Shown: in pieces, positions 9,711 through 60,188 of the stretch
Layout: each line of letters opens with the position of its first letter
Position numbering within the stretch: position 1 is the first letter of the stretch
NCBI GenBank assembly: GCA_001567355.1
Contig: JYNZ01000003.1
Location: 274,124-338,123 of the forward strand
DNA from: a candidate division WS6 bacterium OLB20
GTDB lineage: Bacteria > Patescibacteriota > Dojkabacteria > B142 > OLB20
Direction: 5' to 3'
Length of the DNA stretch: 64,000 nt
Position numbers and translations under genes: made by a program
Notes under the pieces: model-generated
The model's database searches: none
Seen by the model: only the letters and a program-made list of their open reading frames with translations
Told to the model about the DNA's origin: nothing

Positions 9711-12700
9711 TTACGCCCTTGCCGTTAGATCCGACAGCCAGAGCATCGGTCCGGCATCAGGCTCGTACCATGTGTTATTAATCATCAGCAGTACCGTTGC
9801 CTGACCTGATGACGGTTCCCAGCTCTCGAGGGCTGTACCGATAACCATGCCTCTGCCGGTTGCCTTTTGAGCACGACCCGGCACGTCTGAAACGCTCAGT
9901 GCATCGCCTTTTGCAATTGGTTGTGACGTTGAGGCGATCTTGACCGGCACACGCCCTGCAAGAGCAAGGGGTTTGAAGTACCTGTAATCCAGTTCATTAT
10001 CAGGTGTGGAGGGGTTCAGCGTCAGGCCTGGATTTGTGGAGATAACACCGAGTACACGATCCCGCGATGAACTGTCGGACTTCTCGACAAGGAATCTGTT
10101 ATACAGATTTTCGTCAGAGTGTTCCACTGTTGATACGCTAACGATGTCACCTGCACTGATTGAAGTATCTGCTGTCTTTACGTATTCAGCGATGTCAGGT
10201 GTACCTGAGCCATTTGTCATATCACGCCATTCGTATGTACCACCGGAATTCTGTCTGCAGAGATAGATGGTGCCGTCCTCAGCCGCATCACGATTATAGA
10301 TCGTTGTACCGACTGTCGACGAATCACAGGTCGGCGCACTTCCTGTTGCAACATTTGCGTATACGATCCCTGCAGATGCACCCGTTATCACTACATTACC
10401 GCTGACAGTGATGTCGTCTGACAGCGCGAACCCGTCATTCGTGGAGTCCCAGCGGAAAGTCTCGGTATTAGTTCCGCCAAAGCTGAGTGTGATATCTCCT
10501 GCAGCTGTTGTGTCCTGTCCCGAATTAAGCATTACACCACCTGTAGCATCAAGACTGATATTGCCGGTCGAATCAATAAAGACATCTGTCTGGTCTGAGT
10601 AGATTTCAAACTCGCCACCCGTACCACCCCATACAGATGAATCAAGATCGATTGTAGCCCCGCCAGCGAGTCCAAGACCGGCAAAGAATTGTCCACTCCC
10701 TGCAGAAGATATCACCCAGGTCTGAATACCGGAAGAGTAACCGGTAACACCCCCTTGAGTTATATGAGTATAACTATCGCTTGGTGTATCACCTCCAAAA
10801 TAGCCCTGCCCCGTGTTATCAACCCTGAAACGTGTATTTCCGGCAACCTCTATATCAATCAGATTTGGATTACCCGCATTTGTCTCATTAATGGCAATAA
10901 TAGTATTTGCACCTGATGCAGTCTGTGCACTCCCCGGCTGCAACGTTACCGATGTATTGGCAGCAAGCAGATCAATACTTGTACTTCCATTGTAGAAGTA
11001 GAGATTTGTGCCGTTGTACCACAGATCCCCGTTTACAGGAGCAGACGGATCAACGCTGGCAGAAGGTGTTAGATTAATCTGTGCACTGCCAGCTGTTGGG
11101 GCCTTGATATCAAGCCAGGCATCAGGAGTTGCTACACCGATTCCAATCCGGTCTGCACTTCCGTCAGCGTAAAACAGGCTTGCATCTGTATCCCCTTCTA
11201 TGACAAAGTCAACCGAATCTCCGCTCTGATTGAACACAAAGCCGGAATTGTTTAGCTCCAGAATGTCAGCAGTTGTAAACTCAAGGCGGCCTGTGTTGCC
11301 GTTTGATGCATACAGGTCGATCTTGCCGTTGGCAGTTGCACCGGTACCGACACGCACCAGGTTGTCGCTGACATCGACACTGAATGAGCCTCCAAGACCG
11401 GTACCGCCAACTGCAAAGTCATCGGTGACACTTGTCAGGTAGGTTGCGCTTCCTGCATCAGTCAGGAATGAACTGAATCCGCAGTTTGTTTCGCTGGCAT
11501 CGCAGACCAGCTTGTCGCCCCAGTAAAGATCAGTAGTGGCAGGATTTGCCTGAGCTGATGTTGAAAGGTAGTTGTTCGCAGAACCGTTACCCAGATGGAT
11601 CAGATCTGCAACCTCAAGCCTGTCGTCTACTACTACGTAACCGGCATTGTTTGCGCTCAGTACAAGGTCCTCGTCACTGGCAAGGTCACCGGCCGTAATA
11701 TAGAACGGTGAATCGGACGTGATGCTGCTGGCTGTTGAATTAGTAAACACAAGGTCATTGGCAATCTGAACGTCACCGACACTGGCAAAGGTGGCGGGTA
11801 CATCAGCTCTGATACCGGTTGCAGAAATGCTGAAAATATCAGCTCCATTAATGTCGATATCAAGCAATGTACCGGTATATCCGCTGGCGGGGTTGATATA
11901 CAGAGCTGTTTCATTTGCTGCCAGCGCTGTACCAAGTGTTGTAGTACCGCTGAAGAGGAAGTCACCGTATGTCATTGCAGCTACATCATTGATATAGCCA
12001 AACTGGTTAGCTCCAAATCCAAACTCCAGACGGTCATCGGTCGTCTCATCATAACGGAAGAATGCATCGGCGTTAGTACCAAAGAACATGCTCTGGTCGT
12101 CCGCCAGAAGGACATTGCCACCTGAAAACTCCCAGCGGTCATCGGTTGTAAAGGTAATTGCACCTGTGTCACCGTCGCTTGCAAACATATTCAAGACACC
12201 GTTTGCAGTTGCACCGGTACCGATGCGGACAGTATTGGTGTCAACATCAACACTGAACGAAGATGCAAGGGTGCTGCCTCCGACTGCAAAATCATCTGCT
12301 GCCTGGGAAAGATACGTGATCGAACCCGAGTCTGTAAACAGCGAACCTCCTCCGAATGAAATACCGCAGTTTGCCTCACTTACATCGCAAAGCAGATCAT
12401 CACCCCAGTAAAGATCCCCGTTGGCACCTGCACCAACCGTACCGACACTGAGAACATCCGCAGTGTCAGTGCCAAGGTTGAGGTCACCGTCAATCTGCAG
12501 ATTACCGCTTTCATCAATACTGCCAACCTCTGTTGTCTCGCCATCATTATAGAAACTGATCCGGTAATCAGTATCACTGACGATATCAAGCAGAACGCTC
12601 ATATCTATCTCGGTATTGGATACATTGAAGTAATTGCCCCGCAGCACAAGCGCTCCGGAGTCTGCTGTAGCGCCTGTTGTCGAGTTATCAATAATGATGT

Positions 12701-15700
12701 CAAACGGTGCTGTACCCTGCACTACCACATTGCCGCCGGTAAACGTACCTGCTCCGCCAGTCACATTGAGCGCTCCACCAACAGTGAATGTATCATCAGT
12801 CTGCAACACATTCGTACCATTGTCGTACAAATTAGTGTCATTACCAATCACAATCCCGCCCGAGACACCGGTTGCCGAGGCTGTAAGCTGTCCCTGCACT
12901 GTGAGTGCATCAGGAGTGATAAGCAGGTTTGTTCCGCCATCGTATAGAAGCGTGTCGTTTCCGATTTCGATACCTGCTGAAGCACCGGTGGTGTTAAGCC
13001 TCAGCCTGCCTGCACTGACATCAAAGAAGAACGGCCCGGTAGTCAGATTAGATCCAAGCACAAAATCATCGGTAGTCTCAGTCAGATAGGTGAATGTTCC
13101 ACCATCAGTCAGAAGACTCGCAGCTCCAGCAAGCAGATCAACCGTAGAAGAACCGTCGTAGAAGTTAAGGTTGGTGCCGTTAAACCAGATATCACCCGAG
13201 TTCGGTGTTGTCGGATTTGTCCCCGGAGTAAAGTTGATATGGGCATTGCTGGCAGTTGATGCAGCGATGTCGAGGATGGCGGTGGGGGCAGTCACACCAC
13301 CAATCCCGACAAGGCCGCCGCTGTTTTGCAATACCAGATCACCATCACTTTCGATGGTAAGATCGTTTGTTGTTGTGTTATAGCTGATTGTGCCCTCGTC
13401 ACTGGTCGATGTACCGATATGCAGTGTTGCAGGACCAAGGTACAGGTCTCTCCAACGGCGGGCATTTGCGCCCAGGTCATATGTATCGTCGACACTAGGC
13501 TGAAGATCATCAGTGATTTCAAAGCTGTCCAGAGATGCTCTCCAGGCAAGTACCTCAGTGTTTGTACCACCGAAGTTAATTGCAATATCACCGGCACCGG
13601 TCGTATCAACATCCGTCTGGATATCGATATCGCCATCCGAGTAGATGTTACCTTCAACGCCAAGGTCACCATTGATAAAGGCGTCATCACCGCTCAAGGT
13701 AAATCCGCCACCGGCAATAGTTTCAGCAGTTGCTCCCAGCAGAAAATCGCCGCCACTTATATATACATCACCACCTGCAAATTCGAATGTGTCTGTATCC
13801 AGGAACTGGATTGATCCGTCATTTGTTGCATCACTCGCATAGAAAGCGAGCATGGGAGTATTGGCATCATTTTCGCCGTCTCCGATACGTACGACATTGG
13901 CTGACACATCAACACTGAATGGTGCCACGAGGGTATTACTTGCACCGATAGCCAGGTCATCCGAGGTCTGAGTCAGGTACGAAATCGTTCCGCCATCCGT
14001 AAACAGTGATGATCCCCCAAATGCAATGCCGCAGTTAGATTCGCTTACGTCGCAGATCAGGTCCTCACCCCAGTAAAGATCGCCGTTTGCAGCTGATGCA
14101 GGTCCAACACCCAGCACGTCAGCTGTATCGGTGCCGATATTGATGTTACCGTCCACCTGCAGGTTTCCGGACTGGTCAATGCTCGCTACTTCAGCTCCCG
14201 ACCCGTCATTAAGAAAACTCAGACGATAGTCAGTATCAGAGATGATATCCAGCAGAACCCGCATATCGATCTCTGTATTCGATACATTAAAATAGTTACC
14301 TCTTAAAATCATGGCACCGGAATCCGCTGTAGCGCCCGTGGTGGAGTTATCAATAATCAAGTCCTGTGCAGTGGAGTTCTGAATCAGGATGCCTCCGCCG
14401 GTAACATTAATACTGCCACCAGTAACATCAAGCGTATCGCTTACCACAACTGTTCCGCCGGATGACGACAGCGTCAGACTTGAGTTGCTGTCACTGATAC
14501 CGCTGTCTGCAATTGTGAGTCCGCTGCCAGCCACAATGTTGTTTTCGACATACAATGAATCGCCAACACCGAGCAGGTCGAGAATGTACATGTCATCTGC
14601 AGTTGCAGAGTCAAGTACAAATGATGTGTTCGTAAGCGGTGTGTTGTCACCAGAGTATGTTCCGATAATGACATCAAAGTCATTCTCAAATGTTCCTGTA
14701 TTGCTGCCGCTGTTAAACGTAAGCGACTCCCAGAGACCATAATCGCTGTTACAGCCGCTGCCGTTTGCAAGACATACCGTTTGATTGCCCCAGTAAAGCG
14801 GATTTGTTGCAGCGCCGCCTGCTGCAGAAGTTGCAAGCCGGTCATTTGAACCGGCCCCCAGAGACAGGATCGAGCCACCTACATTCATCGTGCCGCTTAC
14901 AGTCAGATTGCCGGTTGTACCCACATCAGTAAGTGCAAGAAGAACATTGGTACCATCACTCAACTCAAGGCGGTCATCAGTTGTTTCATCGTAGTAGATC
15001 TGAATGTCATCGTTTGTGCCGAAATTAAGCGAGATGTTGTCAACAATCCTCTGACTGCCACCGCTCCACTGCAGCAGATCCCCGATATATTCAAATCGAC
15101 CAGTGTCACCCGATGAAGAGTAGAAATCAAGCTTGGCATTACCTGATGATCCGTCTCCGATACGTGCAAGGTTTTCGCTCTCGTCAACGCTGAATGCGGA
15201 TACCAGCGTCGAAGAAAGCGACAGGTCAGATCCCGAAGAGGTCAGATACGTCACATTGGCATTAATTGTCCAGAGTCCGCCTCCACCTCCGGATGCAGCG
15301 TTGAGGGCATGGAGAATGGAGTTTGTGCCGGCAGGCAATGAAGTGTTTGAGCCGTCACTGAATGCGATGTCGCCGGTAAGTGAATCGTTAAACGTCAAAA
15401 CGGCTGAACTTGAAATACCGCCACCGTTTACGTTCAGGTCTCCGATCGTTGTGATATCACCTGTATTTGATACCGTGAACACATCACTGCTTGCCACCTG
15501 CATCTGGATCAGATTGGGAGTATTGGCACCGTCTTCGTTGAGATAAATAAGCGGAGTGGTTACGTTTCCGGTTGCCTGGATGGATGCCGGGGATAACTGG
15601 ACAAAACCGGATGAAGCAATACCGCCCAGCCGTTCCGCCTCATAGGCAAACGGTACAGTAGTAAGCTGCTTGCGTGAAAAAGTCTCAGCAGAAGAGAAAT

Positions 15701-16142
15701 CTCCGTTTCCGTCATCATCGAACTCGATTTCGACATACACACTTGAGTCATCCCCCCACGACAGACCTGACCCGCTACAGCTTCCCCCTGGTGATTCCCA
15801 GTTTCCACAGACAGAGTTGAGACTCAGACTGAATACACCCTCATAGTCACCAAGTTCGATATTTTCGTGTGGTTCGCGCCATAGCAGTGTCCCACCGACA
15901 GGGTCTGAGTAGATGCTGACTCGGAGGTCGCAGGTATCAGCACCGGCAGCTACACATGATGGTGTCCCCGTAATCAGGTTTGTACCATCAGGCCGGTTAA
16001 CGATCTTACCCTGGAAATTCAATGTGCTTGCTACAGCAGCACGGATATCAACGGGAGAGACAAGCACCACGAAACACAGCGCGAGCAGTGCAAAAATAGT
16101 TAAAAGTACCCTGTTTTTTCTAGTATGCGAGTTCAACTCCAT
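9711..16142 (-). CDS. giant (2143 aa) secreted/surface repeat protein with N-terminal signal anchor
   Basis: Signal/TM (LLTIFALLALCFVVLV); four copies of a module containing LYWG-x-D-L/V-C-D-x-S-E-x-N-CG, two of them extended (about 170 aa at about 75 to 80 percent identity); motif DLGANARRWRDLYLG reminiscent of phage tail-fibre proteins; sequence is Gly/Thr/Ser/Asn-rich. Confidence 0.85.
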   Translation of the reverse strand: MELNSHTRKNRVLLTIFALLALCFVVLVSPVDIRAAVASTLNFQGKIVNRPDGTNLITGTPSCVAAGADTCDLRVSIYSDPVGGTLLWREPHENIELGDYEGVFSLSLNSVCGNWESPGGSCSGSGLSWGDDSSVYVEIEFDDDGNGDFSSAETFSRKQLTTVPFAYEAERLGGIASSGFVQLSPASIQATGNVTTPLIYLNEDGANTPNLIQMQVASSDVFTVSNTGDITTIGDLNVNGGGISSSAVLTFNDSLTGDIAFSDGSNTSLPAGTNSILHALNAASGGGGGLWTINANVTYLTSSGSDLSLSSTLVSAFSVDESENLARIGDGSSGNAKLDFYSSSGDTGRFEYIGDLLQWSGGSQRIVDNISLNFGTNDDIQIYYDETTDDRLELSDGTNVLLALTDVGTTGNLTVSGTMNVGGSILSLGAGSNDRLATSAAGGAATNPLYWGNQTVCLANGSGCNSDYGLWESLTFNSGSNTGTFENDFDVIIGTYSGDNTPLTNTSFVLDSATADDMYILDLLGVGDSLYVENNIVAGSGLTIADSGISDSNSSLTLSSSGGTVVVSDTLDVTGGSINVTGGGILIQNSTAQDLIIDNSTTGATADSGAMILRGNYFNVSNTEIDMRVLLDIISDTDYRLSFLNDGSGAEVASIDQSGNLQVDGNINIGTDTADVLGVGPASAANGDLYWGEDLICDVSESNCGIAFGGSSLFTDGGTISYLTQTSDDLAIGASNTLVAPFSVDVSANVVRIGDGENDANTPMLAFYASDATNDGSIQFLDTDTFEFAGGDVYISGGDFLLGATAETIAGGGFTLSGDDAFINGDLGVEGNIYSDGDIDIQTDVDTTGAGDIAINFGGTNTEVLAWRASLDSFEITDDLQPSVDDTYDLGANARRWRDLYLGPATLHIGTSTSDEGTISYNTTTNDLTIESDGDLVLQNSGGLVGIGGVTAPTAILDIAASTASNAHINFTPGTNPTTPNSGDIWFNGTNLNFYDGSSTVDLLAGAASLLTDGGTFTYLTETTDDFVLGSNLTTGPFFFDVSAGRLRLNTTGASAGIEIGNDTLLYDGGTNLLITPDALTVQGQLTASATGVSGGIVIGNDTNLYDNGTNVLQTDDTFTVGGALNVTGGAGTFTGGNVVVQGTAPFDIIIDNSTTGATADSGALVLRGNYFNVSNTEIDMSVLLDIVSDTDYRISFYNDGETTEVGSIDESGNLQIDGDLNLGTDTADVLSVGTVGAGANGDLYWGDDLLCDVSEANCGISFGGGSLFTDSGSITYLSQAADDFAVGGSTLASSFSVDVDTNTVRIGTGATANGVLNMFASDGDTGAITFTTDDRWEFSGGNVLLADDQSMFFGTNADAFFRYDETTDDRLEFGFGANQFGYINDVAAMTYGDFLFSGTTTLGTALAANETALYINPASGYTGTLLDIDINGADIFSISATGIRADVPATFASVGDVQIANDLVFTNSTASSITSDSPFYITAGDLASDEDLVLSANNAGYVVVDDRLEVADLIHLGNGSANNYLSTSAQANPATTDLYWGDKLVCDASETNCGFSSFLTDAGSATYLTSVTDDFAVGGTGLGGSFSVDVSDNLVRVGTGATANGKIDLYASNGNTGRLEFTTADILELNNSGFVFNQSGDSVDFVIEGDTDASLFYADGSADRIGIGVATPDAWLDIKAPTAGSAQINLTPSASVDPSAPVNGDLWYNGTNLYFYNGSTSIDLLAANTSVTLQPGSAQTASGANTIIAINETNAGNPNLIDIEVAGNTRFRVDNTGQGYFGGDTPSDSYTHITQGGVTGYSSGIQTWVISSAGSGQFFAGLGLAGGATIDLDSSVWGGTGGEFEIYSDQTDVFIDSTGNISLDATGGVMLNSGQDTTAAGDITLSFGGTNTETFRWDSTNDGFALSDDITVSGNVVITGASAGIVYANVATGSAPTCDSSTVGTTIYNRDAAEDGTIYLCRQNSGGTYEWRDMTNGSGTPDIAEYVKTADTSISAGDIVSVSTVEHSDENLYNRFLVEKSDSSSRDRVLGVISTNPGLTLNPSTPDNELDYRYFKPLALAGRVPVKIASTSQPIAKGDALSVSDVPGRAQKATGRGMVIGTALESWEPSSGQATVLLMINNTWYEPDAGPMLWLSDLTARA

Positions 16143-37119: not shown

Positions 37120-37195
37120 GCTGGAATAGCTCAGATGGTAGAGCGCACCCATGGTAAGGGTGAGGTCTCGGGTTCGATCCCCGATTCCAGCTCCA
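37120..37195 (+). tRNA. tRNA-Thr (anticodon GGU), CCA encoded
   Basis: Cloverleaf: acceptor gctggaa/ttccagc, D arm gctc/gagc, anticodon stem caccc/gggtg with loop atGGTaa, T arm tcggg-ttcgatc-cccga. Confidence 0.75.
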
Positions 37196-37388
37196 GAGTT
37201 TTTGAGCTGTCTCCAACAGCGAAAAATTACTCTGGAGACGTCCCCTGGAGCATGTGATATACAAATCACATGCGGACGGCCAGCGACTTCCGGTCAGAAG
37301 TGCACAAGGATACCTGGATGTGCCGTATGCAAGTAATAATAACCTTACATCACTACCCTGCCCGACTGCTCTCAGCTATACTTGACTC

Positions 37389-38153
37389 ATGATCGCAGGC
37401 CATATTGAACACAACCACGGACGCCTATACTACGAAACAGACGGCACGGGAGAGCCGCTTGTATTTATTCATGGCTTTTCCCTCGATCACCGGATGTGGC
37501 GAGAACAGCTTTCCGCATTCCGTGACTACCAGGTACTGACCTATGATCTGCGAGGCCATGGCAGATCAGATGTTCCCTCGGGGTCATACTCGCACCACGA
37601 CGATCTTGCGGCCCTGCTTGAGGAACTCGAGATACAGCCCGTACATCTTGTTGGTCTCTCACTTGGTGGAGAGGTTGCACTTGACTTTGCAGTCGAATAT
37701 GCAGGCCATGCGCGATCACTGACACTGCTGAGCACGTCCCTCAGCGGCTTCAGCGGAAACGTTGACTGGAATGTTCATCCCGAAGCCGGTCTGCCGTATG
37801 CAAAACTTAACTGGCTTAACCATGAAGTCTTTGCGTCGGCAAGAAAAGTCCCGGCTGTCAGGTCAGTACTCGAACAGATGATATATGACTATTCAGGCTG
37901 GCACTGGCTTAACGATGATCCACGCGAACGTCCCGAGCCACCTGCAGCTGATAGAGTCCGGGAGCTTACCATTCCGATACTTACAGCGGTCGGCGAAGAT
38001 GACCTGCCGTACTACCACGATATCGCTAACGCAATTGCCGGTGCGACTTCATCGGCAGAGAAAACGGTTATTCAAGGAGCCGGTCATCTGCTCAACCTCG
38101 AAAAACCCGAGCTGATAAATGCGCTTATCCGGCAGCAGACTGTAGCCCGTTAA
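37389..38153 (+). CDS. alpha/beta-fold hydrolase
   Basis: HGFSLDHRMW oxyanion region and nucleophile elbow GLSLGG; 254 aa. Confidence 0.75.
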   Translation: MIAGHIEHNHGRLYYETDGTGEPLVFIHGFSLDHRMWREQLSAFRDYQVLTYDLRGHGRSDVPSGSYSHHDDLAALLEELEIQPVHLVGLSLGGEVALDFAVEYAGHARSLTLLSTSLSGFSGNVDWNVHPEAGLPYAKLNWLNHEVFASARKVPAVRSVLEQMIYDYSGWHWLNDDPRERPEPPAADRVRELTIPILTAVGEDDLPYYHDIANAIAGATSSAEKTVIQGAGHLLNLEKPELINALIRQQTVAR

Positions 38154-38416
38154 AATATCCCATTTTCGTAACAGGCAATCTCCGGGCAACCTACATCACC
38201 ACGAAGCCCTGTTTTAAATATTACATCACAGACCCCCTGCGCCCTACTCTCCAGGCAACAACAGCGCAGCCACTCAGCAGATAATCAATAGCTGACCACC
38301 ACCGATCAAAACACCACGGTGGACAAACAAGACCCGGTCTGTGCCGCACTCGCGTCTGCATGACGTTGTCATCAGAAAACAAAATCATGTATACTCCAGT
38401 TCGTCCCGTATTGCTG

Positions 38417-38422
38417 TATAAT
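38417..38422 (+). promoter_or_regulatory. candidate -10 element (TGtataat) upstream of the tRNA-Tyr/tRNA-Thr pair
   Basis: tataat preceded by TG, 15 nt upstream of tRNA-Tyr 5' end. Confidence 0.3.
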
Positions 38423-38437
38423 CTAATACGCAATTGC

Positions 38438-38520
38438 GCAGGGATGGCAGAGCGGTCAAATGCACCAGACTGTAAATCTGGCGTCGCGAGACTACGGGGG
38501 TTCAAATCCCTCTCCCTGCA
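38438..38520 (+). tRNA. tRNA-Tyr (anticodon GUA), long variable arm
   Basis: Acceptor gcaggga/tccctgc, anticodon loop ctGTAaa, type-II variable arm, T arm ggggg-ttcaaat-ccctc. Confidence 0.85.
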
Positions 38521-38526
38521 TAGTGA

Positions 38527-38602
38527 GCCGCCTTAGCTCAGTTGGTAGAGCATCGGTTTTGTAAACCGCTGGTCGTCAGTTCGAGTCTGACAGGCGGCTC
38601 CA
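38527..38602 (+). tRNA. tRNA-Thr (anticodon UGU), CCA encoded, followed by T-run
   Basis: Acceptor gccgcct/aggcggc, anticodon stem tcggt/accgc with loop ttTGTaa, T arm gtcag-ttcgagt-ctgac. Confidence 0.8.
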
Positions 38603-38739
38603 TCTTTTTTCGGGGTTACCACCCCCTCCCATGATTTAAGCGTATCCAGGCCGCGGTAAAACAGTCCTTAACTGCCGGCATGGATTATGCATTCGCTCAC
38701 TGATAGCGTATAATCACACAATCAAGACTCCTTTTCGCA

Positions 38740-39201
38740 ATGAAATACGACGTTTCAGAAGTCGGTGAGATCGAAATCAATACAATTGTGTTTGACCTGA
38801 ACGGGACACTGCAGGTGCAGGGATCCATTCCCGAAGGTGTCAGGGAACGCCTTGCAAAGCTCCGCGAACTTGGTTTCAGCCTGGTATTCTTTACCGGCGA
38901 TGCCCGTGGTAATGCACACGAAATAGCAGAAGAACTGGGGATCGAGTTTCGCAAATGCGTTAACGGTGCAGAAAAAGAAGCCGCCATGTCGGATTTTGAT
39001 AAAGAAACCACCGCAGCAATCGGAAACGCACGGATAGATATCGGCACATTCCGTAACGCAAAACTTGCGATCGGAACTCTACAGGCAGAAGGTATCCATA
39101 CCGGTATACTTAAACACATCGACGTACTTGTCCCCTCGATAAATGACGCCCTGGACTTTTTCCTGGACGAAGCTGCCTTCAAGGCAACCATGCGCACATA
39201 A
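38740..39201 (+). CDS. small HAD-superfamily-like protein with non-canonical motif I (DLNGT instead of DxDGT)
   Basis: FDLNGTL (motif I), VFFTGD, GNARID (motif IV-like with Asn); 153 aa. Confidence 0.5.
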   Translation: MKYDVSEVGEIEINTIVFDLNGTLQVQGSIPEGVRERLAKLRELGFSLVFFTGDARGNAHEIAEELGIEFRKCVNGAEKEAAMSDFDKETTAAIGNARIDIGTFRNAKLAIGTLQAEGIHTGILKHIDVLVPSINDALDFFLDEAAFKATMRT

Positions 39202-39738
39202 ATGAAACACAGCAGCAGAATCAAAAATTATTTCGACAGCGCGGAGGCCAGCATCATTCCTCTTGACGATGCCTTTGTACCGAGCACAGAGCAGCTGAAG
39301 CAGATCGTGACAATATGCAACAGCGAACCGAACTACAGCATGCTGTTTAAAGAGAAGAAAGGGGCAAAACCTTATACTGCCGAAGATGCTGCCGGCTTTA
39401 TCTCGTGGGCTCAAAGGGGCTGGAGCGGATCAGAGTATTTTGTTTTTCTGATCCTGGAAGACGGGCGTATTGCCGGGGCGGTAGACATCAAATCGGCTTC
39501 AAAGGATGCTTCCGAAATCGGATACTGGAGCAATCCCGACCGCAAAGGCTTTATGACCGCAGCTGTTACTGATCTGTGTTCGATTGCCCGCAGTATGGGC
39601 TATCAAAAACTTTACGCCCTTGTCCGCACTCACAACAGCAAATCAGCAAATGTGCTTGAACGCGCAGGCTTTGTCCGTGATAATGAATCAGTTGTCAAAG
39701 ACGGCAGTGATTACTTCAGATACTCAAAACAAATCTAA
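39202..39738 (+). CDS. GNAT-family N-acetyltransferase (RimJ/RimL-like)
   Basis: GYWSNPDRKGFMT...ANVLERAGF acetyl-CoA binding region typical of GNAT. Confidence 0.7.
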   Translation: MKHSSRIKNYFDSAEASIIPLDDAFVPSTEQLKQIVTICNSEPNYSMLFKEKKGAKPYTAEDAAGFISWAQRGWSGSEYFVFLILEDGRIAGAVDIKSASKDASEIGYWSNPDRKGFMTAAVTDLCSIARSMGYQKLYALVRTHNSKSANVLERAGFVRDNESVVKDGSDYFRYSKQI

Positions 39739-39740
39739 CA

Positions 39741-40472
39741 ATGCAGATCGAAGGCAGAAACCCGGTAATTGAAGCTCTTAAGGCGCGCAGTGATCTGAAA
39801 TACATCATTCTTGATGAGGCACTCGAGCCGGATCCGAAAATCAACAAAATCAGAAAACTGGCTGCACAACGGGAGGTACCTGTCCGCATGAAGCCGCGAA
39901 AATATCTGAAAAAAATCTCGCAGACCGGAACACACCAGGGCGTAATCGCCGTAAAGAACGAGGGAAAAGCTCCGTCGTTCCGGCAGCTGGTTGAAGCAGT
40001 ACCGCTTGAGAGCTCACCCTTTTTCATCTATATCAGAGAAGCCCTGTACGAACACAACATCGGAGCAATAATCCGTACAGCCGAGGCTGCCGGGGCACAC
40101 GGAGTGATTATTCCGCCCAAGGCAAAGATCACACCTCAGGTAATCAGGATCTCCATGGGCGGTACCGAGCATGTCCCCGTAATCCAGGAGGGGCTGTTTC
40201 CGGTGATCAAACAGGCCCGCGAAAAACTGGGTCTTAAGGTGATCGGTATCGAAGTCAGCGGCGAAAACTACTACTATCAGGAGGATCTGTCCGGGCCTGT
40301 CCTGTTTATCATCGGTGGCGAAGACAGACCGCTGAGTGATGAAATCACAAGCAAATGCGATGCAGTTGTTAAGATTCCCCTGCGGGGTTACCTTAACTCA
40401 CTCAATATGAGTGTCGCAGCCGGCATCGTTCTCTACGATAAAGTCCGACAGGAAATGTCAGAAAACGTGTGA
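39741..40472 (+). CDS. SpoU/TrmH-family RNA 2'-O-methyltransferase (RlmB-like)
   Basis: N-terminal L30e-like substrate-binding domain, SPOUT core GAIIRTAEAAGAHGVIIP, IPLRGYLNSLNMSVAAGIVLY. Confidence 0.8.
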   Translation: MQIEGRNPVIEALKARSDLKYIILDEALEPDPKINKIRKLAAQREVPVRMKPRKYLKKISQTGTHQGVIAVKNEGKAPSFRQLVEAVPLESSPFFIYIREALYEHNIGAIIRTAEAAGAHGVIIPPKAKITPQVIRISMGGTEHVPVIQEGLFPVIKQAREKLGLKVIGIEVSGENYYYQEDLSGPVLFIIGGEDRPLSDEITSKCDAVVKIPLRGYLNSLNMSVAAGIVLYDKVRQEMSENV

Positions 40473-40496
40473 GCCGCTCTGGACGCGAGGGTATTT

Positions 40497-40507
40497 TGTG
40501 GTACAAT
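40497..40507 (+). promoter_or_regulatory. candidate extended -10 promoter (TGgTACAAT) for rpmG-tRNA-Trp-secE-nusG
   Basis: tggtacaat 49 nt upstream of rpmG start; weak -35. Confidence 0.35.
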
Positions 40508-40555
40508 ATCACCTGAATTCCCGCACTAGGGTTAATAATTTTTTACGCATCTGGA

Positions 40556-40723
40556 ATGGCGAAGAAAGGCAACCGGATACTGATAAAACTCGTAAACAAG
40601 AAGACTGGCACGTTTTATGTGACGAGTAAGAACCGGATCAACACCAACGATAAAATCGCAATGACCAAGTTTGACCCCAAGACGGGCAAACACGAGAAGT
40701 TTGAAGAGACCAAGATCAAATAG
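40556..40723 (+). CDS. rpmG: 50S ribosomal protein L33 (55 aa; below ORF-track size cut-off)
   Basis: Manual translation MAKKGNRILIKLVNKKTGTFYVTSKNRINTNDKIAMTKFDPKTGKHEKFEETKIK; conserved rpmG-tRNA-Trp-secE-nusG order. Confidence 0.85.
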   Translation: MAKKGNRILIKLVNKKTGTFYVTSKNRINTNDKIAMTKFDPKTGKHEKFEETKIK

Positions 40724-40728
40724 ACTGT

Positions 40729-40803
40729 AGAGCCATGGTGTCAATGGTAGCATGACGGTCTCCAAAACCGTTGGTAGTGGTTCGAATCCACTTGGCTCTG
40801 CCA
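40729..40803 (+). tRNA. tRNA-Trp (anticodon CCA), CCA encoded
   Basis: Acceptor agagcca/tggctct, anticodon stem acggt/accgt with loop ctCCAaa, T arm agtgg-ttcgaat-ccact. Confidence 0.85.
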
Positions 40804-53692: not shown

Positions 53693-54697
53693 CTATCTTC
53701 GTCTGTTCAGCATGCGTTCACGACGCAGATTCGCTCGTTCTATCGCTTCAGACATGTCTGCCTCAGGTTTTTTGACCAGCCTCACCATGAACACGCCCTC
53801 AGAGCTGGTATCATCTGCAGTGACAAGTCCGACTGACTCCTGACTGGTCTGAATGATCTTATGCTGTGATTCGACTGCAAAGTTATTCATGGTCGCAAAA
53901 TGAAGGAAGTCGGCAAGATTACGGAATGTCACAAGCCCCGGCTGTCTTGTGTAGTTCATCGCATAGACATGATCAGCATATGCGATGCCAAGTGACCGTG
54001 CCTCAGAACGTTCTGCGGACGCGATATTTGCCCAGTCAAACGGGAGATCCTCCTTCACAGGTCGCTTCCAGAGCTCTGCCTTGGCACGCATTCCATCATG
54101 GGTCCGGACTGCTTCTTCATCACTGACAGCGACAAATTTGACTACAAATGCTCCATCATCTTTCAGGGCCTGATGTGCCGTATTCATGATGGAACGGGCT
54201 GTCTGGTGCTCCATTCCTTCAAACAGAAATTCGCTTACAATCAGATCGGCTGTCTGATCCTGACCCTCAAGAGGACACGCCAGATTGTGCAGCAAAGCTT
54301 CTGAATCAGAGATACCTCTCTGCCCGATATAGTGCTGTGACCGTGCAATGCTGAGCGGATTAATATCATATGCGGAGTAAGATCCCTGCCTGTTGCCAAA
54401 CGCCTCATTGTCCATGTAAAACGCAAATTCGCTCGGCAGGCCGAAGCGCAATATACGTGATCCGGGATTTACTGCTACCTGTTCAAATCCTGCGCCGGGA
54501 TAATGCGGTGAGCGGACCGGACTAAGCCAGCCCCACTGGTAACCGTAGCCTACCGTGTACAGCGCTGTCTCGTATGAGACATCAAACCTGGTCGCAAGAT
54601 CATTAATTGAATTAGAAGGGTCATCAGGGTTTATTGAGAGTTTCCTGGACTCAAACCCTTCCCGTAAACCTGTCTGTGAAAGTATTTCGTTTCCCAT
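53693..54697 (-). CDS. hypothetical protein (possible class-I methyltransferase-like fold, weak)
   Basis: 334-aa ORF; ADLIVSEFLFEGMEH resembles MTase motif II but motif I is not evident. Confidence 0.45.
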   Translation of the reverse strand: MGNEILSQTGLREGFESRKLSINPDDPSNSINDLATRFDVSYETALYTVGYGYQWGWLSPVRSPHYPGAGFEQVAVNPGSRILRFGLPSEFAFYMDNEAFGNRQGSYSAYDINPLSIARSQHYIGQRGISDSEALLHNLACPLEGQDQTADLIVSEFLFEGMEHQTARSIMNTAHQALKDDGAFVVKFVAVSDEEAVRTHDGMRAKAELWKRPVKEDLPFDWANIASAERSEARSLGIAYADHVYAMNYTRQPGLVTFRNLADFLHFATMNNFAVESQHKIIQTSQESVGLVTADDTSSEGVFMVRLVKKPEADMSEAIERANLRRERMLNRRR

Positions 54698-54786
54698 TGT
54701 ATATATTCAATATATATTAATTATACCACACTGCAGGTATAATCGCCTAAACTTGACAGAGGTTTCACTGCTGTTAGACTGTTTTT

Positions 54787-55359
54787 ATGGACGGAGAGAC
54801 AAAGGCTTTACTGGTACAGCAGATACGATATTACGGTGAGAGCAAGATCTTTGACCTCAACCGTCGTGATGAGCTGATTGCCGAGCAGTCCTTTAAACTG
54901 TGCGAGCTGATTATCAACGCGTCCAGCGGGCTTCTCGGAGCCATAGGATTGTCAATCCTCATTTCGGAAAGCATCACACAGACAGTTGCGCTTATCCTGG
55001 CTGGCAACCTTCTCTTCATTATCTTTGTGATCTACCGGTCATTCAGTCTGCGCAAACAGATTCTGTCCCTGCGCAGGAGCGTAATCGAAAAGAAAGCACA
55101 TACCGATAGTGAAATCTTAACGCGCCTGACCGCAGAGTCCTATGAGCTCTTCCAGAAAGACTACGAGGCATTTGCCAATGCAATTGCTGCGATAAAAAAT
55201 GAGGAGAAAGAGGATCAGAAACCATCTGCTGAGGAAATTAACGCGGAGACCACCCGGATTATCCAGGCCATCTGGATCCTGCGCGCCTTCTTTATCCTGA
55301 CGCTTGTTCTGACCGCGTTTGCTGTTATTATCCAGCTGGGTCAGACTGTTTTTGCATAA
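54787..55359 (+). CDS. hypothetical integral membrane protein
   Basis: 190 aa, at least 3 hydrophobic helices. Confidence 0.45.
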   Translation: MDGETKALLVQQIRYYGESKIFDLNRRDELIAEQSFKLCELIINASSGLLGAIGLSILISESITQTVALILAGNLLFIIFVIYRSFSLRKQILSLRRSVIEKKAHTDSEILTRLTAESYELFQKDYEAFANAIAAIKNEEKEDQKPSAEEINAETTRIIQAIWILRAFFILTLVLTAFAVIIQLGQTVFA

Positions 55360-55404
55360 AAAAAGGGCCCCTGAAGGACCCTTTCTCTCAGTATTTCGTG
55401 ATCA

Positions 55405-56013
55405 TTACTTCCTGGTCAGTTTACCCTGCATACCCATCAGTGGAGCTGCATAGGTCGAATAGTCGATAACCTCAACATGCTCAAACCAGAGCGCTATTTC
55501 ATCTTCTGCCTCGGCAACTTCACCGGATGCATGCACAAGGTTGTAAAACGGGCGCTTATGCTGATTGGCCAGTTCGGCGTTGTCAGATGAAAAGTCGCCC
55601 CTGATCGTACCCGGGGCTGCATTGATCGGGTTTGTCTCACCAACAAGCTTACGTCCGATCTTTACGGCATTCGGGCCTTCCCAGACCATTGCAAGAACCG
55701 GTCCGTAGGTCAGGTAGTCAACATTCCACTGTTTGACAAGCTTTCCGATCTCGATCGCATCATCGGTGCCCAGCTCTTTTACCGCATCAATCCCCTTCTC
55801 TTTGTACTCACTGAGGGTGCGTTCGCCTACTTTTCTGTACCAGCTCTCTGCATCGGGATAATGCGCTTTACCCATGTCTTCTGTACTCTGCAGAAATTCG
55901 AGCGCGACGAGTTTAAGACCAACTCGTTCAAAGCGCTTGATGATCTGTCCCATGAGACCGCGGGCGACACCGTCGTGCTTGACGATGATGACTGTTTTTT
56001 CTGTATTGCTCAT
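55405..56013 (-). CDS. ndk: nucleoside diphosphate kinase-like protein with about 50-aa internal insertion (paralog 1)
   Basis: NDK fold: IIVKHDGVARGL, catalytic-His region NLVHASGEVAEAEDEIALWF; 202 aa versus about 140 typical. Confidence 0.7.
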   Translation of the reverse strand: MSNTEKTVIIVKHDGVARGLMGQIIKRFERVGLKLVALEFLQSTEDMGKAHYPDAESWYRKVGERTLSEYKEKGIDAVKELGTDDAIEIGKLVKQWNVDYLTYGPVLAMVWEGPNAVKIGRKLVGETNPINAAPGTIRGDFSSDNAELANQHKRPFYNLVHASGEVAEAEDEIALWFEHVEVIDYSTYAAPLMGMQGKLTRK

Positions 56014-56033
56014 ATTAGTGTTGTAACAGATAA

Positions 56034-56648
56034 TCAGATAAATGCCTCGTACGAACCCGTATAGTCCGCCCGGTCATAATCACCGAGGTAGGTATATTTG
56101 TCGCCAAACCAGTGCTCGATCTCGCGTTCGGCCTCATCTGCTGCATCAGACCGGTGTACAAGGGTTCTAAAGACGATACGTCCGGACTTAACTGCAAACT
56201 GCGGAGTATCAAAGCCGAAATCACCGCGGATTGTCCCCACATCAGCCACAGTTGGATCGGTCTTACCCATCAGACGCTCCACAACCTTCACTGCGTGGTT
56301 TCCCTCCCATACTGCAATCAGTACAGGTCCGTCGACAAGGTAGTTTACCAGTGCGTCATAGATCTTTTTGCCGATCTCAAGCGGATCATCGGTTCCGAGG
56401 TCGGCTTTTACAGCTTTAAGATCGTGGTTGTAATTGTTCAGCGTTTTTTCACCCATAGCTGTCATCCATTCATCAGTACCGGGGTAATTGCCGCGTGCCT
56501 GTTCCTCTGTCGCCTGAATTAATCGCGCTGCGACAAGTTTCAGCCCGATCCGCTCCAGTCTGCTGAAGATCTCGCCGACAAGCCCCCGCTTTATCCCGTC
56601 CGGCTTGATCATGAAGAACGTCTTCTCAATGTTTGGCAGGTTGCTCAT
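56034..56648 (-). CDS. ndk: nucleoside diphosphate kinase-like protein with internal insertion (paralog 2)
   Basis: FFMIKPDGIKRGLVGEIFSRLE, NLVHRSDAADEAEREIEHWF; 204 aa. Confidence 0.75.
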   Translation of the reverse strand: MSNLPNIEKTFFMIKPDGIKRGLVGEIFSRLERIGLKLVAARLIQATEEQARGNYPGTDEWMTAMGEKTLNNYNHDLKAVKADLGTDDPLEIGKKIYDALVNYLVDGPVLIAVWEGNHAVKVVERLMGKTDPTVADVGTIRGDFGFDTPQFAVKSGRIVFRTLVHRSDAADEAEREIEHWFGDKYTYLGDYDRADYTGSYEAFI

Positions 56649-56658
56649 ATTGAGTATA

Positions 56659-57288
56659 TTAATAAGTAATTCCGTGCTCTTTCAGCACAGCAAGAATCGA
56701 TGAAAACACCTGGTCGACAGGTCCGTTACCGTCGATAACCGCCCAGGTACCAAATGTATTGTTGTCTGCAAGCTTCAGAAAAGCAGACCGGATCTTTCTC
56801 TGCTTCTCGATATCAGCTTCAAACATATCAAACCCCTCTTCATGGCCTTCTTCGTCAAGTTTGCGCTTTACCGCCTTGTCGGGATCAACGTCCAGAAATA
56901 CAACCAGTTCGGGCCTGGGAAGTTTAAAGGTTTCAGCGAAATCGAGCGCAGTATCAAGCGCGATGCTGCCCAGCAGCATACTCTGGTAAGCAATATTTGT
57001 CGTATAGTAGCCGTCGGCAATAAAGTGGGTATCGGTTTTGCCTGTATGCATCTCTATCCTAGGCTTCCAGAGCAGCTGATCAAGTGCAAAGCTTAAAAAC
57101 ATCGCCTCGGATGGAACGTCAATCTCGCTATGCAGTGCAGGATGAATCAACTCGCGATAAAGAGCACCTTCGTGGTCAGGAAAATCTGTCGTATCGTAGG
57201 TTACATCATGTTCGTCAAAATGCGCCAGAAGCTCATGGCGCTGTCTGCCTTTGCCGGCACCATCAATGCCTTCGAGAACAATGAACAT
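56659..57288 (-). CDS. tmk: thymidylate kinase
   Basis: P-loop LEGIDGAGKG, DRY-like region, LID; 209 aa. Confidence 0.8.
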   Translation of the reverse strand: MFIVLEGIDGAGKGRQRHELLAHFDEHDVTYDTTDFPDHEGALYRELIHPALHSEIDVPSEAMFLSFALDQLLWKPRIEMHTGKTDTHFIADGYYTTNIAYQSMLLGSIALDTALDFAETFKLPRPELVVFLDVDPDKAVKRKLDEEGHEEGFDMFEADIEKQRKIRSAFLKLADNNTFGTWAVIDGNGPVDQVFSSILAVLKEHGITY

Positions 57289-57334
57289 AGGAGAATTGCT
57301 AAGTTACGCCATTGTAGCAGATTGTTTCTGACGG

Positions 57335-58165
57335 TCAATCCCTGCTGATTGAGTAACCGTGGCCATCCGATTTCAGGTGGATTCTGCCCTGCAGGTCTGT
57401 TCTAAATACTTGAACACCCGCTATGTCCAGATTATTCAATACCTCCTGATGCGGATGTCCGAATCTGTTATCTCTGCCTGACTGAATTATTGCGACCTCT
57501 GGTGCGGTATCTGCAAGAAAATCCGGCATGGTACTTGTTCGACTGCCGTGATGCGACACCTTGAGCACATCAATGTCCGGCAGATCTGACCTCACAAGAG
57601 CACGTTCTGCGTCCTTTTCGATATCACCGCCGGTGAACAGTGAAAATGACCCGTATCTGACAATGCCGCTGATCGAGGCGTTGTTTGAGCTATAGCGGGA
57701 GTACGTTGTACGATCAGGCCAGTGGACAGCAAAACTCACACAGCACCCGAAATACAACACGTCACCTTCCCAGAGCGTCTGCCTGCTGCCTAGTGTCTCG
57801 GTCTGAAACAGCTTAAACAGAGCCGAGTCATGGTCACTGCTGTTCCAGATAAATGTTTTTACGGTATACCTGTCCGCAACGTCAAGCATACCACCCAGAT
57901 GATCAAGATCAGGGTGCGACAGCATAACGTAGTCGATCTCTCTGTCCCAGACAGGCATAACAGCCCCGAGCTCCTGCAGAACAGTAGCATCAGGACCTGC
58001 GTCAATAAGAACATCAACTCCGTCAGGCGTTCGCAGATAGATAGCATCGCCCTGTCCGATATCAAGAAAATAAATCTCAAGATAACTGCTGAGGCTGACA
58101 CGTAAAGGCAGCGCGAGAAGTGCCAGACACACTATAATAAAGATCAGGCGTTTAAGCATCGGCAT
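57335..58165 (-). CDS. ComEC-associated MBL-fold (metallo-beta-lactamase) domain protein with its own N-terminal signal anchor
   Basis: FLDIGQGDAI, HPDLDHLGG, KVSHHGS motifs typical of the ComEC C-terminal nuclease domain; separate ORF downstream of the ComEC channel gene. Confidence 0.75.
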   Translation of the reverse strand: MPMLKRLIFIIVCLALLALPLRVSLSSYLEIYFLDIGQGDAIYLRTPDGVDVLIDAGPDATVLQELGAVMPVWDREIDYVMLSHPDLDHLGGMLDVADRYTVKTFIWNSSDHDSALFKLFQTETLGSRQTLWEGDVLYFGCCVSFAVHWPDRTTYSRYSSNNASISGIVRYGSFSLFTGGDIEKDAERALVRSDLPDIDVLKVSHHGSRTSTMPDFLADTAPEVAIIQSGRDNRFGHPHQEVLNNLDIAGVQVFRTDLQGRIHLKSDGHGYSISRD

Positions 58166-58230
58166 CGGGCTTTACCAGCACGGTCGTGATAAAAAGAAGT
58201 ATCAGTACGGCGACGCCTGCTGCTTCTCTG

Positions 58231-59607
58231 TTAGTCCCGATCACGAGCATAGTACCTTCTATTGATGAGAAAAAACGTAATAATCCGGACAAACAGTTCT
58301 GTCACAATCCACGCCGGGACAGCCGCCAGATCATTAATGACCGGTAGCAGAGACAGGGGCAGGATAAGAAAGCCAAACAGCATAATAATAGGCACCAGCG
58401 GTCCGACAGCAAGATTGGCGATCGGACTGATAAGCGGCACCGTCCCGAAAGATGACACAGTAACCGGCAGAGTTGCTACGTTGGCTGCCAGCGTAAGTGA
58501 AAGCTCTTCGCGGATCAGTGTCCCGAACAGACGCGGGACAATGCGCCTGAGGCGCGGTTCAATCACAATCAGCCCCAGGGTAGCTGCAAAGGACAGTTGC
58601 AGACTGAGTGAAAACAGACTCAGGGGATTAATCAGCAGCATGCAAAACAGGGCCAGCCCCAGACTGTTAGCAACTGCCCCCCTTCTGCCGCTGACCTTAC
58701 CCGCAAGCATCGCCAGTCCCATAATGGTGGCGCGCAGAGCCGGCTGATTATCAGCACCGACAATACCCAGAAACAGCAGTATGCCAACGGCTGCAATCCA
58801 CATGAGTTTCTTGCGGTGGATACGACCCGCAAGTGACAGAATCAGAGTAATCAGAAGGGTCACATTAAAACCGGAGACAGCAATCATATGTGTCGTCCCG
58901 GTCAGAGACAGCCTCCCGTCAAAATCCTGATAAAACTCTTCGCGTGTTCCGATCAGCATGCCGATCACCAATGCTGCATGCGGCTCCGGCAATGACATTT
59001 GAAGCTTTTCCCTGATTCCGTTTCTTGCAGATACAAGCAGAGAATCAGGGAAACCTGCGTCGGCTGTTACTTCGATTGTATGTGCATCAGCCACTGCATA
59101 TACATCCAGTGTGCGAAGATAGCCGGGATAATCAAAACCATCGAATGATTCCGGCTGCTCGATCTGCGCTGTAAACGTTACTCTCTGCCCCTGCTCCACT
59201 CTGACATAACGTCCGGTTGTAACCAGGATCAGTCCGCCTCTGACACTGAGAGAGCCGGCATCATCTGACAGTGCCAGGGGTAAGAGCCTGAAGCGCTTGC
59301 GGTGCAGATCTGTGTAGGGTTGTGATACAACAATGCCCGTGACTTCATAGTATCCGTTCAGGTACCTGGTCACATGAGCATCAATATGCTCGGGCACTGC
59401 TGTCGAGAAATATCTGAGTACCAGCAGTGCGAGGAGTGGCACAAGCAGAAGGAACCTGCGGTTGATCATGACTGCCGCACCGGATGAAGCAGACATAAAC
59501 AGCAGCCCATGGGCAAACGCAGACTTCTCTGCTCCGATAAGAAAGCCAGTCGCTGGAATCAGGATGAGCAGGAGCGGATATCCCGCGAGTACCCGTAGCC
59601 GCTTCAC
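58231..59607 (-). CDS. comEC: ComEC/Rec2 DNA-uptake channel protein (DUF4131 + Competence domain), lacking the MBL domain
   Basis: Multi-TM, conserved HMIAVSGFNVTLL segment of the ComEC competence domain. Confidence 0.8.
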   Translation of the reverse strand: MKRLRVLAGYPLLLILIPATGFLIGAEKSAFAHGLLFMSASSGAAVMINRRFLLLVPLLALLVLRYFSTAVPEHIDAHVTRYLNGYYEVTGIVVSQPYTDLHRKRFRLLPLALSDDAGSLSVRGGLILVTTGRYVRVEQGQRVTFTAQIEQPESFDGFDYPGYLRTLDVYAVADAHTIEVTADAGFPDSLLVSARNGIREKLQMSLPEPHAALVIGMLIGTREEFYQDFDGRLSLTGTTHMIAVSGFNVTLLITLILSLAGRIHRKKLMWIAAVGILLFLGIVGADNQPALRATIMGLAMLAGKVSGRRGAVANSLGLALFCMLLINPLSLFSLSLQLSFAATLGLIVIEPRLRRIVPRLFGTLIREELSLTLAANVATLPVTVSSFGTVPLISPIANLAVGPLVPIIMLFGFLILPLSLLPVINDLAAVPAWIVTELFVRIITFFLINRRYYARDRD

Positions 59608-60188
59608 AGGCTCACAAGCGGCTCAAGTTTTGAAAAGGTCTGTTCGCCTATGCCGGGGACGTTATCAAGATCCTCAACTGACTTATACGGTCTGGCATCG
59701 ATGATCTTCAGGGCTGTTGACTCCCCCACACCGGGCAGCGTCATCAGCTGCTCGAGCGTTGCAGAGTTAAGCGAAATACGCCCGCCGGCAGCCGATGGTG
59801 ATGCAGTCTTCTCAGCAGCCGGGATAAAGAGTTTGTACCCTTCTGCAGCAACTTCGGAAAGAGCCACATCCCGGTTAAGAAACAGCAGATCAGCCTCGGG
59901 AGTCAGACCTCCGGCAAGATCAATAAGTTCTATCACACGTCTCGGCTCTGCAAGTTCATACACACCAGGATTTGCAACCTGGCCGGTTATCTCAACAAAA
60001 TAGCTGCCACCACTGTCGGGGGAATCCGGGGGGATTGAAGAAGTACGATCCTGCGATATCTCATCCTGATGTCCCGCTGCTGCATACAGCAGCAGAGCTG
60101 TGAGCAGTATCACACAGATCAAAAGTCCTGCGAGAAGCTTCTGGATCCTGACGGGCAATGATTGTATCTCCCTGATTACATCGTTCAT
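59604..60188 (-). CDS. comEA: ComEA DNA receptor (helix-hairpin-helix)
   Basis: N-terminal TM; C-terminal tandem HhH (INSATLEQLMTLPGVGESTALKII...VPGIGEQTFSKL). Confidence 0.85.
   Translation of the reverse strand: MNDVIREIQSLPVRIQKLLAGLLICVILLTALLLYAAAGHQDEISQDRTSSIPPDSPDSGGSYFVEITGQVANPGVYELAEPRRVIELIDLAGGLTPEADLLFLNRDVALSEVAAEGYKLFIPAAEKTASPSAAGGRISLNSATLEQLMTLPGVGESTALKIIDARPYKSVEDLDNVPGIGEQTFSKLEPLVSL

Follow-up and report, generated by a model that had tools for sequence, protein, structure and literature searches.

Nucleoside diphosphate kinase (NDK), a housekeeping enzyme, is as a rule single and highly uniform. Why should the genome of a Candidate Phyla Radiation (CPR) bacterium carry two genes for it side by side? 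The question is raised by a stretch of 64,000 nucleotides (the window) from the candidate division WS6 bacterium OLB20, a member of the Dojkabacteria (GenBank assembly GCA_001567355.1, contig JYNZ01000003.1), in which two NDK genes, here called ndkB and ndkA, follow tmk, a gene assigned to deoxythymidine monophosphate (dTMP) kinase. In our view it is rather probable that tmk-ndkB-ndkA holds an old, ordered pair of long-form NDK paralogs, made up of a general NDK and a sub-functionalised partner. CPR bacteria are reported to be unable to make nucleotides de novo, and they would therefore depend on the last phosphorylation steps of salvage. An ordered pair in which one member has altered ribose and phosphate contacts together with an intact phospho-histidine core suggests a division of labour in such minimal cells, which could be by substrate or by assembly.

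An ordered pair of NDK genes downstream of tmk

An earlier note on this DNA (the original prediction) had placed two ndk paralogs beside tmk. Three co-directional open reading frames (ORFs) on the minus strand bear this out (Table 1), and each was matched by Pfam: the NDK family (PF00334, curated gathering cut-off 27) matched ndkA with an E-value of 1.5e-34 (119.2 bits) and ndkB with an E-value of 1.8e-35 (122.2 bits), and Thymidylate_kin (PF02223, cut-off 27) matched tmk with an E-value of 1.2e-18 (68 bits). The tmk translation contains the P-loop GIDGAGKG; the NCBIfam dTMP kinase models matched it below their cut-offs (TIGR00041, 77.7 vs 83.25). The identities of ndkA and ndkB are themselves ordinary: both proteins are 100% identical to NCBI entries of candidate division WS6 bacterium OLB20, which places the host among the Dojkabacteria, and these entries already bear the name nucleoside diphosphate kinase. 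As the three genes are separated by gaps of only 10 and 20 nt, are preceded by a promoter-like site and are followed by a terminator hairpin (RNA fold of -18.7 kcal/mol, z = -3.1 against shuffles), we infer that tmk-ndkB-ndkA is one three-gene nucleotide-kinase operon in this Dojkabacteria genome. The count of promoter-like sites in the region was not above that in shuffled sequence, so that the site upstream of tmk is a candidate only. Rfam and tRNA scans found no RNA element inside or beside the three genes. The hairpin sits exactly at the end of a convergent plus-strand ORF (54787-55359), and probably terminates this convergent gene as well as ndkA. An assembly artefact or a frameshifted single gene was ruled out as the source of the pair: the two ORFs agree at fewer than half of their positions, and a separate large family of orthologs belongs to each.

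The original prediction had spoken of a tandem duplication, a term that suggests a recent, lineage-specific event. The genes are indeed adjacent and co-directional and share the same architecture, as would be expected if a recent duplication in this lineage had left two redundant NDKs. We nevertheless find this explanation scarcely credible. The two proteins are just 47% identical (over 179 aa) and fall into separate ortholog groups of at least 120 sequences each. Comparisons of the groups were made on 120 listed A-orthologs and 120 listed B-orthologs, with identities to the respective query of 63% or more: identity averages 65–68% within a group, the A-to-B mean is 42%, and 11 positions are fixed differently between A and B. 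A neighbour-joining (NJ) phylogeny (about 188 columns, 200 bootstraps) recovered A as monophyletic in 168 and B in 196 of the 200 replicates, and A and B as sisters in none of them. Instead, B and the upstream copy of Roizmanbacteria pairs were found in a small clade (at most 30 taxa) in 136/200, and the smallest clade common to these two excluded A in 146/200. The duplication also fails to be lineage-specific by gene order, since the same ordered pair occurs in Roizmanbacteria and in other lineages.

This order was followed across genomes. In all seven loci from GTDB species representatives, which are labelled Dojkabacteria or, by an automated pipeline, Saccharibacteria, B is followed by A. 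Five of the seven (L001, L002, L004, L005 and L006) read MBL-tmk-B-A, where MBL is a gene for a metallo-beta-lactamase; in L003 the contig ends too close upstream for tmk to be seen, and in L007 it is MBL that immediately precedes ndkB. The order tmk-B-A is also present in L008 and in the Roizmanbacteria loci L018, L021, L027, L044 and L094, and tmk lies upstream of the NDK pair in L088 as well. In all, B precedes A in 8/8 Dojkabacteria loci. A scan of metagenome contigs yielded 80 loci, 5 with tandem and 75 with single NDK genes. All five tandem loci, four of which belong to a non-Dojkabacteria lineage, have tmk just upstream, as compared with 0 of the 75 single-NDK loci; 42 of these 75 extend for at least 800 bp on both sides. 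Overall, tmk adjoins 10 of the 12 tandem loci when the GTDB and metagenome sets are taken together. When the upstream copy of the Roizmanbacteria loci was used as a query, it matched proteins named Candidatus Roizmanbacteria, and the locus of one of these named proteins reads MreB, PEGA-domain gene, sortase, tmk, NDK, NDK. In the window, too, the operon has genes for MreB and a PEGA-domain protein at a distance of a few kb, so that these are nearby in both phyla. Three further B-like cluster representatives each stand directly before an NDK of the KHD type (A-type, see below), one of the three with tmk upstream. The NJ tree, combined with the gene order common to these lineages, indicates that the ndkB/ndkA duplication would predate the split of the paired lineages.

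One of the Roizmanbacteria loci has an unusual tmk: in L018 (2000-3292) the tmk ORF reaches 287 aa, is extended at the N-terminus and contains a low-complexity insert, and a 222-aa ORF on the other strand overlaps it.

Architecture of the long NDK form

Each copy had been predicted to carry an insertion of about 50 aa after the first helix hairpin. The insertions were placed by a MAFFT alignment of both copies with human NME1 and the Pyrobaculum aerophilum NDP kinase (PDB 1XQI), NDP standing for nucleoside diphosphate. The extra length is internal, as had been proposed, and is not a terminal extension, but it does not form a single block. It consists of three parts: about 34 aa at the tip of the alphaA-alpha2 hairpin (insertion 1), about 10-11 aa in the Kpn loop (insertion 2) and a C-terminal tail of about 5-7 extra residues. 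Insertion 1 is therefore found inside the hairpin, between alphaA and alpha2, rather than after it, and insertion 2, which falls between the GDF motif and the catalytic His in both copies, had been overlooked. The PF00334 match is broken by the insertion into two stretches in each NDK. In canonical NDKs, the alphaA-alpha2 hairpin and the Kpn loop are the two walls of the nucleotide cleft; by alignment, both insertions would thus fall in elements that flank this cleft.

AlphaFold2 (AF2) models of ndkA and ndkB were obtained with a predicted local distance difference test score (pLDDT) of 91.2 for each. In these models, insertion 1 forms two extra helices and an N-terminal extension of alpha2, and insertion 2 forms a short helix. 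The modelled helices of ndkA span residues 56-72, 77-81 and 86-102 in the region of insertion 1 and residues 146-151 in insertion 2; those of ndkB around insertion 1 span residues 59-72, 77-84 and 89-105. All 50 PDB matches listed by Foldseek for both models are NDK entries. The top match for both is 1XQI, with a TMt of 0.94 and a root-mean-square deviation (rmsd) of 1.4 Å for A, and a TMt of 0.89 and an rmsd of 1.8 Å for B (181 columns each).

1XQI is also the best PDB relative of each copy by sequence, being 45-47% identical to both. It gives one unbroken match that runs through both insertions (residues 4-183 of A, E = 4.4e-51; residues 6-184 of B, E = 3.3e-49), unlike every other PDB NDK, which matches the two copies in two stretches. 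The NDK of Borrelia burgdorferi (PDB 4DI6, of the PRK14543 type), which is the second-best fold for ndkB, shares part of this architecture: the match is unbroken through the Kpn-loop insertion, but the protein matches in two stretches and so lacks the long hairpin insertion. Whereas 1XQI comes from a hyperthermophilic crenarchaeon, the host here is a CPR bacterium of mesophile type.

To ask how widespread the long form is, HMMER was run exhaustively against 1.84 billion cluster representatives, and returned 6050 relatives at E ≤ 0.001. Both insertions are present in most of the best 150 of these 6050 (50%-identity clusters), and among these 150 at least 62 are full-length with the same insertion lengths. 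Residues W58, G63, G82-T83-x-D85-P86, G90, W96 and R154 (A numbering) are conserved in those 62, R154 being found in 52 of them. Members include an Altiarchaeota archaeon, Liptonbacteria and an archaeal contig on which the gene lies near L7Ae, S28e and L24e. Some representative clusters have a short insertion 1 (13-17 aa in that part of the alignment) but a full insertion 2. The long form is thus a large NDK subfamily common to archaea and CPR bacteria, and not a feature of one locus. No curated NCBIfam equivalog model covers it: the NDK equivalogs of that database matched both copies below their cut-offs (PRK00668, 127.6 for A and 132.1 for B vs 155; PRK14543, 125.8 for A and 113 for B vs 287).

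These data bear on the proposal that the insertion is a novel, organism-specific module that changes oligomerisation or adds an activity; the original prediction had said that it may alter oligomerisation or add a function. The strong conservation of W58, G63, GTxDP, G90 and R154, and the alignment of the insertions to the two elements flanking the nucleotide cleft, would be in keeping with such a module. However, the crystallised enzyme of P. aerophilum has both insertions as well, as do at least 62 diverse clusters, archaeal ones and Liptonbacteria included, so that they are the defining architecture of a subfamily rather than an innovation of this locus. The published reading, as given in the review PMC7554756 citing Pedelacq 2005 (Pedelacq et al., Protein Sci 14:2562), is moreover that the P. 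aerophilum NDK is stabilised by additional sub-domains. We therefore regard a novel module specific to this organism as highly improbable. The long NDK had been interpreted as a means of stabilisation in hyperthermophiles, but its wide occurrence among CPR bacteria and in several archaeal lineages shows that it is not a thermophile oddity, and reopens the question of the role of the insertions.

The nearest non-CPR relative of ndkA, P0242 (49% identity, also with KHD for KPD), is encoded on an archaeal contig (L091, 2346-4573), where it is preceded by the L7Ae, S28e and L24e genes and by one unannotated minus-strand ORF. Its placement points to a transfer of the long NDK form between archaea and CPR bacteria.

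Residue differences between the copies and the possible role of ndkB

Human NDK holds the nucleotide through hydrogen bonds from K12 and N115 to the hydroxyls of the ribose, stacking of F60 against the base and binding of the beta-phosphate by T94; R88 and the catalytic H118 are directed towards the diphosphate (PMC10853775). Positions such as R88, R105 and N115 are given below in human numbering. ndkA carries the full canonical set (its residues K12, Y52, R121, T127, R138, N158, H161, S163 and E172). All of K12, Y52, R88, T94, R105, N115, H118, S120 and E129 are kept in the 120 listed A-orthologs, which always have KHD in place of KPD. From this complete set, ndkA would be a general kinase converting NDPs into nucleoside triphosphates (NTPs).

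The upstream copy is different. ndkB keeps K15, Y55, T130, R141, H165, S167 and E176. At the R88 and N115 positions, however, it carries E124 and T162, respectively, and its catalytic His is followed by R166. It also lacks the Trp (W96 of A) that is present in 45 of the 62 long-form clusters, one helical turn past the F60 position. The expectation that both copies retain the catalytic His was thus correct (H161 in A, H165 in B), whereas the motif NLVH[AR]S proposed for both describes copy A only: copy B reads RTLVHRS, with Thr for the conserved Asn. For comparison, 1XQI keeps KPD, R88, R105 and N115. Among the listed B-orthologs, N115T is found in 99/120, with one extra residue before the Thr; the catalytic His is present in 119/120, K12, Y52, T94, S120 and E129 are invariant, R105 is kept, and the residue after the His is R, I or C. 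The upstream copy of Roizmanbacteria has N115T in 120/120 and R105H in 112/120 listed sequences, the His being again present in 119/120; the upstream copies of L089 and L090 have Leu at R105. Because long-form representatives in general retain N115 (60/62) and R105 (59/62), the changes at these positions are, on this comparison of sequences, derived and specific to the upstream paralog.

Another arrangement was encountered on the P0299 contig (ENA ERZ1426817), which has tandem long-form NDKs of 194 aa and then 177 aa with a 4-nt overlap. In this pair it is the downstream copy that carries Thr at N115, and the pair adjoins genes for a Ham1-like NTP pyrophosphatase and an IF-2-type GTPase.

Is ndkB then a decaying or non-catalytic pseudo-enzyme persisting beside a functional ndkA? 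The absence of R88 and N115 from this ndkB, and of R105 from related upstream copies, could be read in this way. However, the catalytic His is retained in 119/120 sequences of both upstream families and the catalytic helpers are invariant, the B-orthologs are conserved as much as the A-orthologs or more, and the AF2 model of ndkB is confident (pLDDT 91). The ratio of nonsynonymous to synonymous substitution rates (dN/dS) in the closest ortholog pair, the only one for which it is informative, synonymous sites being saturated elsewhere, is 0.018 for A and 0.014 for B. When genomes are compared, the neighbouring tmk and MBL genes prove far less conserved than either NDK. Both copies are thus under strong purifying selection, and ndkB is not decaying; we consider a pseudo-enzyme very unlikely.

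Since its nucleotide-contact residues are replaced and yet its conservation is as strong as that of ndkA, ndkB may rather be a sub-functionalised partner that still uses the phospho-histidine. Two options can be envisaged. First, the substrate range of ndkB may be re-tuned, for instance towards deoxynucleotides arriving from tmk and from imported DNA; this is considered because the residues changed in ndkB touch the sugar and the phosphates and because tmk adjoins. Second, by analogy with eukaryotic isoforms, for which mixed hexamers have been reported, ndkB might co-assemble with ndkA.

A stronger form of the second option is that A and B are obligate subunits of a mixed hexamer (e.g. A3B3), in which B has a mainly structural or regulatory role. 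The order of the genes is fixed and their spacing is tight or overlapping across lineages, and, according to the review PMC7554756, eukaryotic NME isoforms form hetero-hexamers, which are their dominant form in vivo, and each NDK active site is self-contained, so that a weakened subunit would be tolerable. At a dimer-interface position in beta2 (human K39), A has Glu (120/120 listed) and B has Arg (119/120 listed). This E/R complementarity is, however, confined to Dojkabacteria, being absent from the Roizmanbacteria, L088 and L089 pairs, and a purely structural role would not need the invariant His and catalytic helpers of ndkB. We therefore judge an obligate hexamer with a mainly structural B to be unlikely.

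Comparison with known NDK pairs points to both likenesses and differences. Human NME1 and NME2 are group I NDK paralogs that form hetero-hexamers; like A and B they have a conserved catalytic His, and they are co-expressed, as A and B would be. They keep all nucleotide-contact residues and lack the insertions, unlike A and B. The host-dependent Waddlia chondrophila has two ndk genes with kinase motifs, for which a divergence of roles has been proposed (bioRxiv 10.1101/2025.10.15.682642); this was the nearest report in the literature searched. The Waddlia copies differ by their proposed localisation, one being suggested to act on the host, whereas A and B differ by their substrate-contact residues. 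Unlike the Waddlia genes, the A/B pair is tandem, apparently co-transcribed and of the long, archaeal-like form.

Some observations weigh against an old operonic pair with a sub-functionalised upstream member. Tight gene spacing is general in compact CPR genomes. The support for the B-type super-clade is only moderate, the exact clade being found in 79/200 bootstraps of an NJ tree of about 188 columns. R88 is still present in 68/120 (57%) of the listed Dojkabacteria B-orthologs. Finally, at least one NDK that appears to be single-copy, P0285, also has N115T, so that this change by itself would not bar an NDK from being the sole one in a cell.

With these points taken into account, an ordered pair comprising a general and a sub-functionalised NDK is still the reading we favour. 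A narrower version of it is more tentative, and we would give it a limited chance: the B-type would be a dedicated, re-tuned CPR NDK, either deoxynucleotide-oriented or an obligate mixed-hexamer partner of A, and part of a tmk-ndkB-ndkA module that finishes the salvage of nucleotides from imported DNA to triphosphates. The ComEA, ComEC-like and MBL genes upstream of the operon (Table 1), together with the adjacency of tmk, would fit deoxynucleotide salvage from imported DNA. If true, bacteria would possess a conserved NDK system with two subunits or two specificities, of which no example was found in the literature searched. That literature also yielded nothing on paired NDKs in CPR, Dojkabacteria, Roizmanbacteria or Patescibacteria, and for OLB20 it gave unrelated 'WS6' papers only. 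The insertion is already known. Of a conserved tmk-ndkB-ndkA module whose upstream paralog has been remodelled, the literature searched gave no instance.

Surroundings of the operon in the window

The features of the operon and of its upstream neighbourhood are collected in Table 1. Immediately upstream of the operon (57335-60188) are genes for DNA uptake. The ComEC-like ORF has the DUF4131 and Competence domains only, and with the separate MBL ORF it looks like a split ComEC. The adjacency of MBL and tmk is conserved in the five GTDB loci with MBL-tmk-B-A.

Table 1. Coordinates in the window of the tmk-ndkB-ndkA genes, their insertions and flanking features, in the order of the minus strand.
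Feature	Positions	Strand	Remarks
ComEA (SLBB + HHH)	59604-60188	minus	upstream of operon
ComEC-like ORF (DUF4131 + Competence)	58231-59607	minus	upstream of operon
Separate metallo-beta-lactamase (MBL) ORF	57335-58165	minus	directly upstream of tmk
Sigma-70-like promoter candidate 5' of tmk	57311-57338	minus	TTGACC-16-TACAAT with TG; 10/12 consensus positions
tmk (dTMP kinase, 209 aa)	56659-57288	minus	first gene of the operon; Pfam Thymidylate_kin match
ndkB (long-form NDK, 204 aa)	56034-56648	minus	upstream, tmk-proximal copy; Pfam NDK PF00334
ndkB insertion 1, residues 59-92 (DEWMTAMGEKTLNNYNHDLKAVKADLGTDDPLEI)	56373-56474	minus	between alphaA and alpha2
ndkB insertion 2, residues 148-158 (TPQFAVKSGRI)	56175-56207	minus	Kpn loop; one residue longer than that of A
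ndkA (long-form NDK, 202 aa)	55405-56013	minus	downstream copy; Pfam NDK PF00334
ndkA insertion 1, residues 56-89 (ESWYRK...AIEI; ESWYRKVGERTLSEYKEKGIDAVKELGTDDAIEI)	55747-55848	minus	helical sub-domain at the alphaA-alpha2 hairpin tip
ndkA insertion 2, residues 145-154 (NAELANQHKR)	55552-55581	minus	Kpn loop; holds the conserved R154
Intrinsic terminator hairpin	55358-55388	minus	directly 3' of ndkA; A-tract + GC stem + U-tract

Between the operon and the tRNA-Arg(CCT) gene, two ORFs occupy positions 53693-55359. The first, of 334 aa, has weak, sub-threshold methyltransferase matches; the second, of 190 aa, is apparently a membrane protein by its translation and has no Pfam match. Further away, a plus-strand run of ATP-grasp and ligase genes (44004-50792) encodes a 7TM_transglut protein, an ATPgrasp_ST domain fused to Zn_protease, and an ATP-grasp_4 + LAL_C2 protein. 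Two RimK-like ORFs and a Mur-ligase-like gene are also part of this run, which may be a cluster for peptide ligation or modification. On the minus strand, an ORF of 2143 aa (9711-16142) has no Pfam match at E ≤ 0.001. Most of the window has a negative GC skew; at ~40-52 kb the skew is positive or near zero, a shift that coincides with the plus-strand gene block and with the tRNA genes at 37120-40803.

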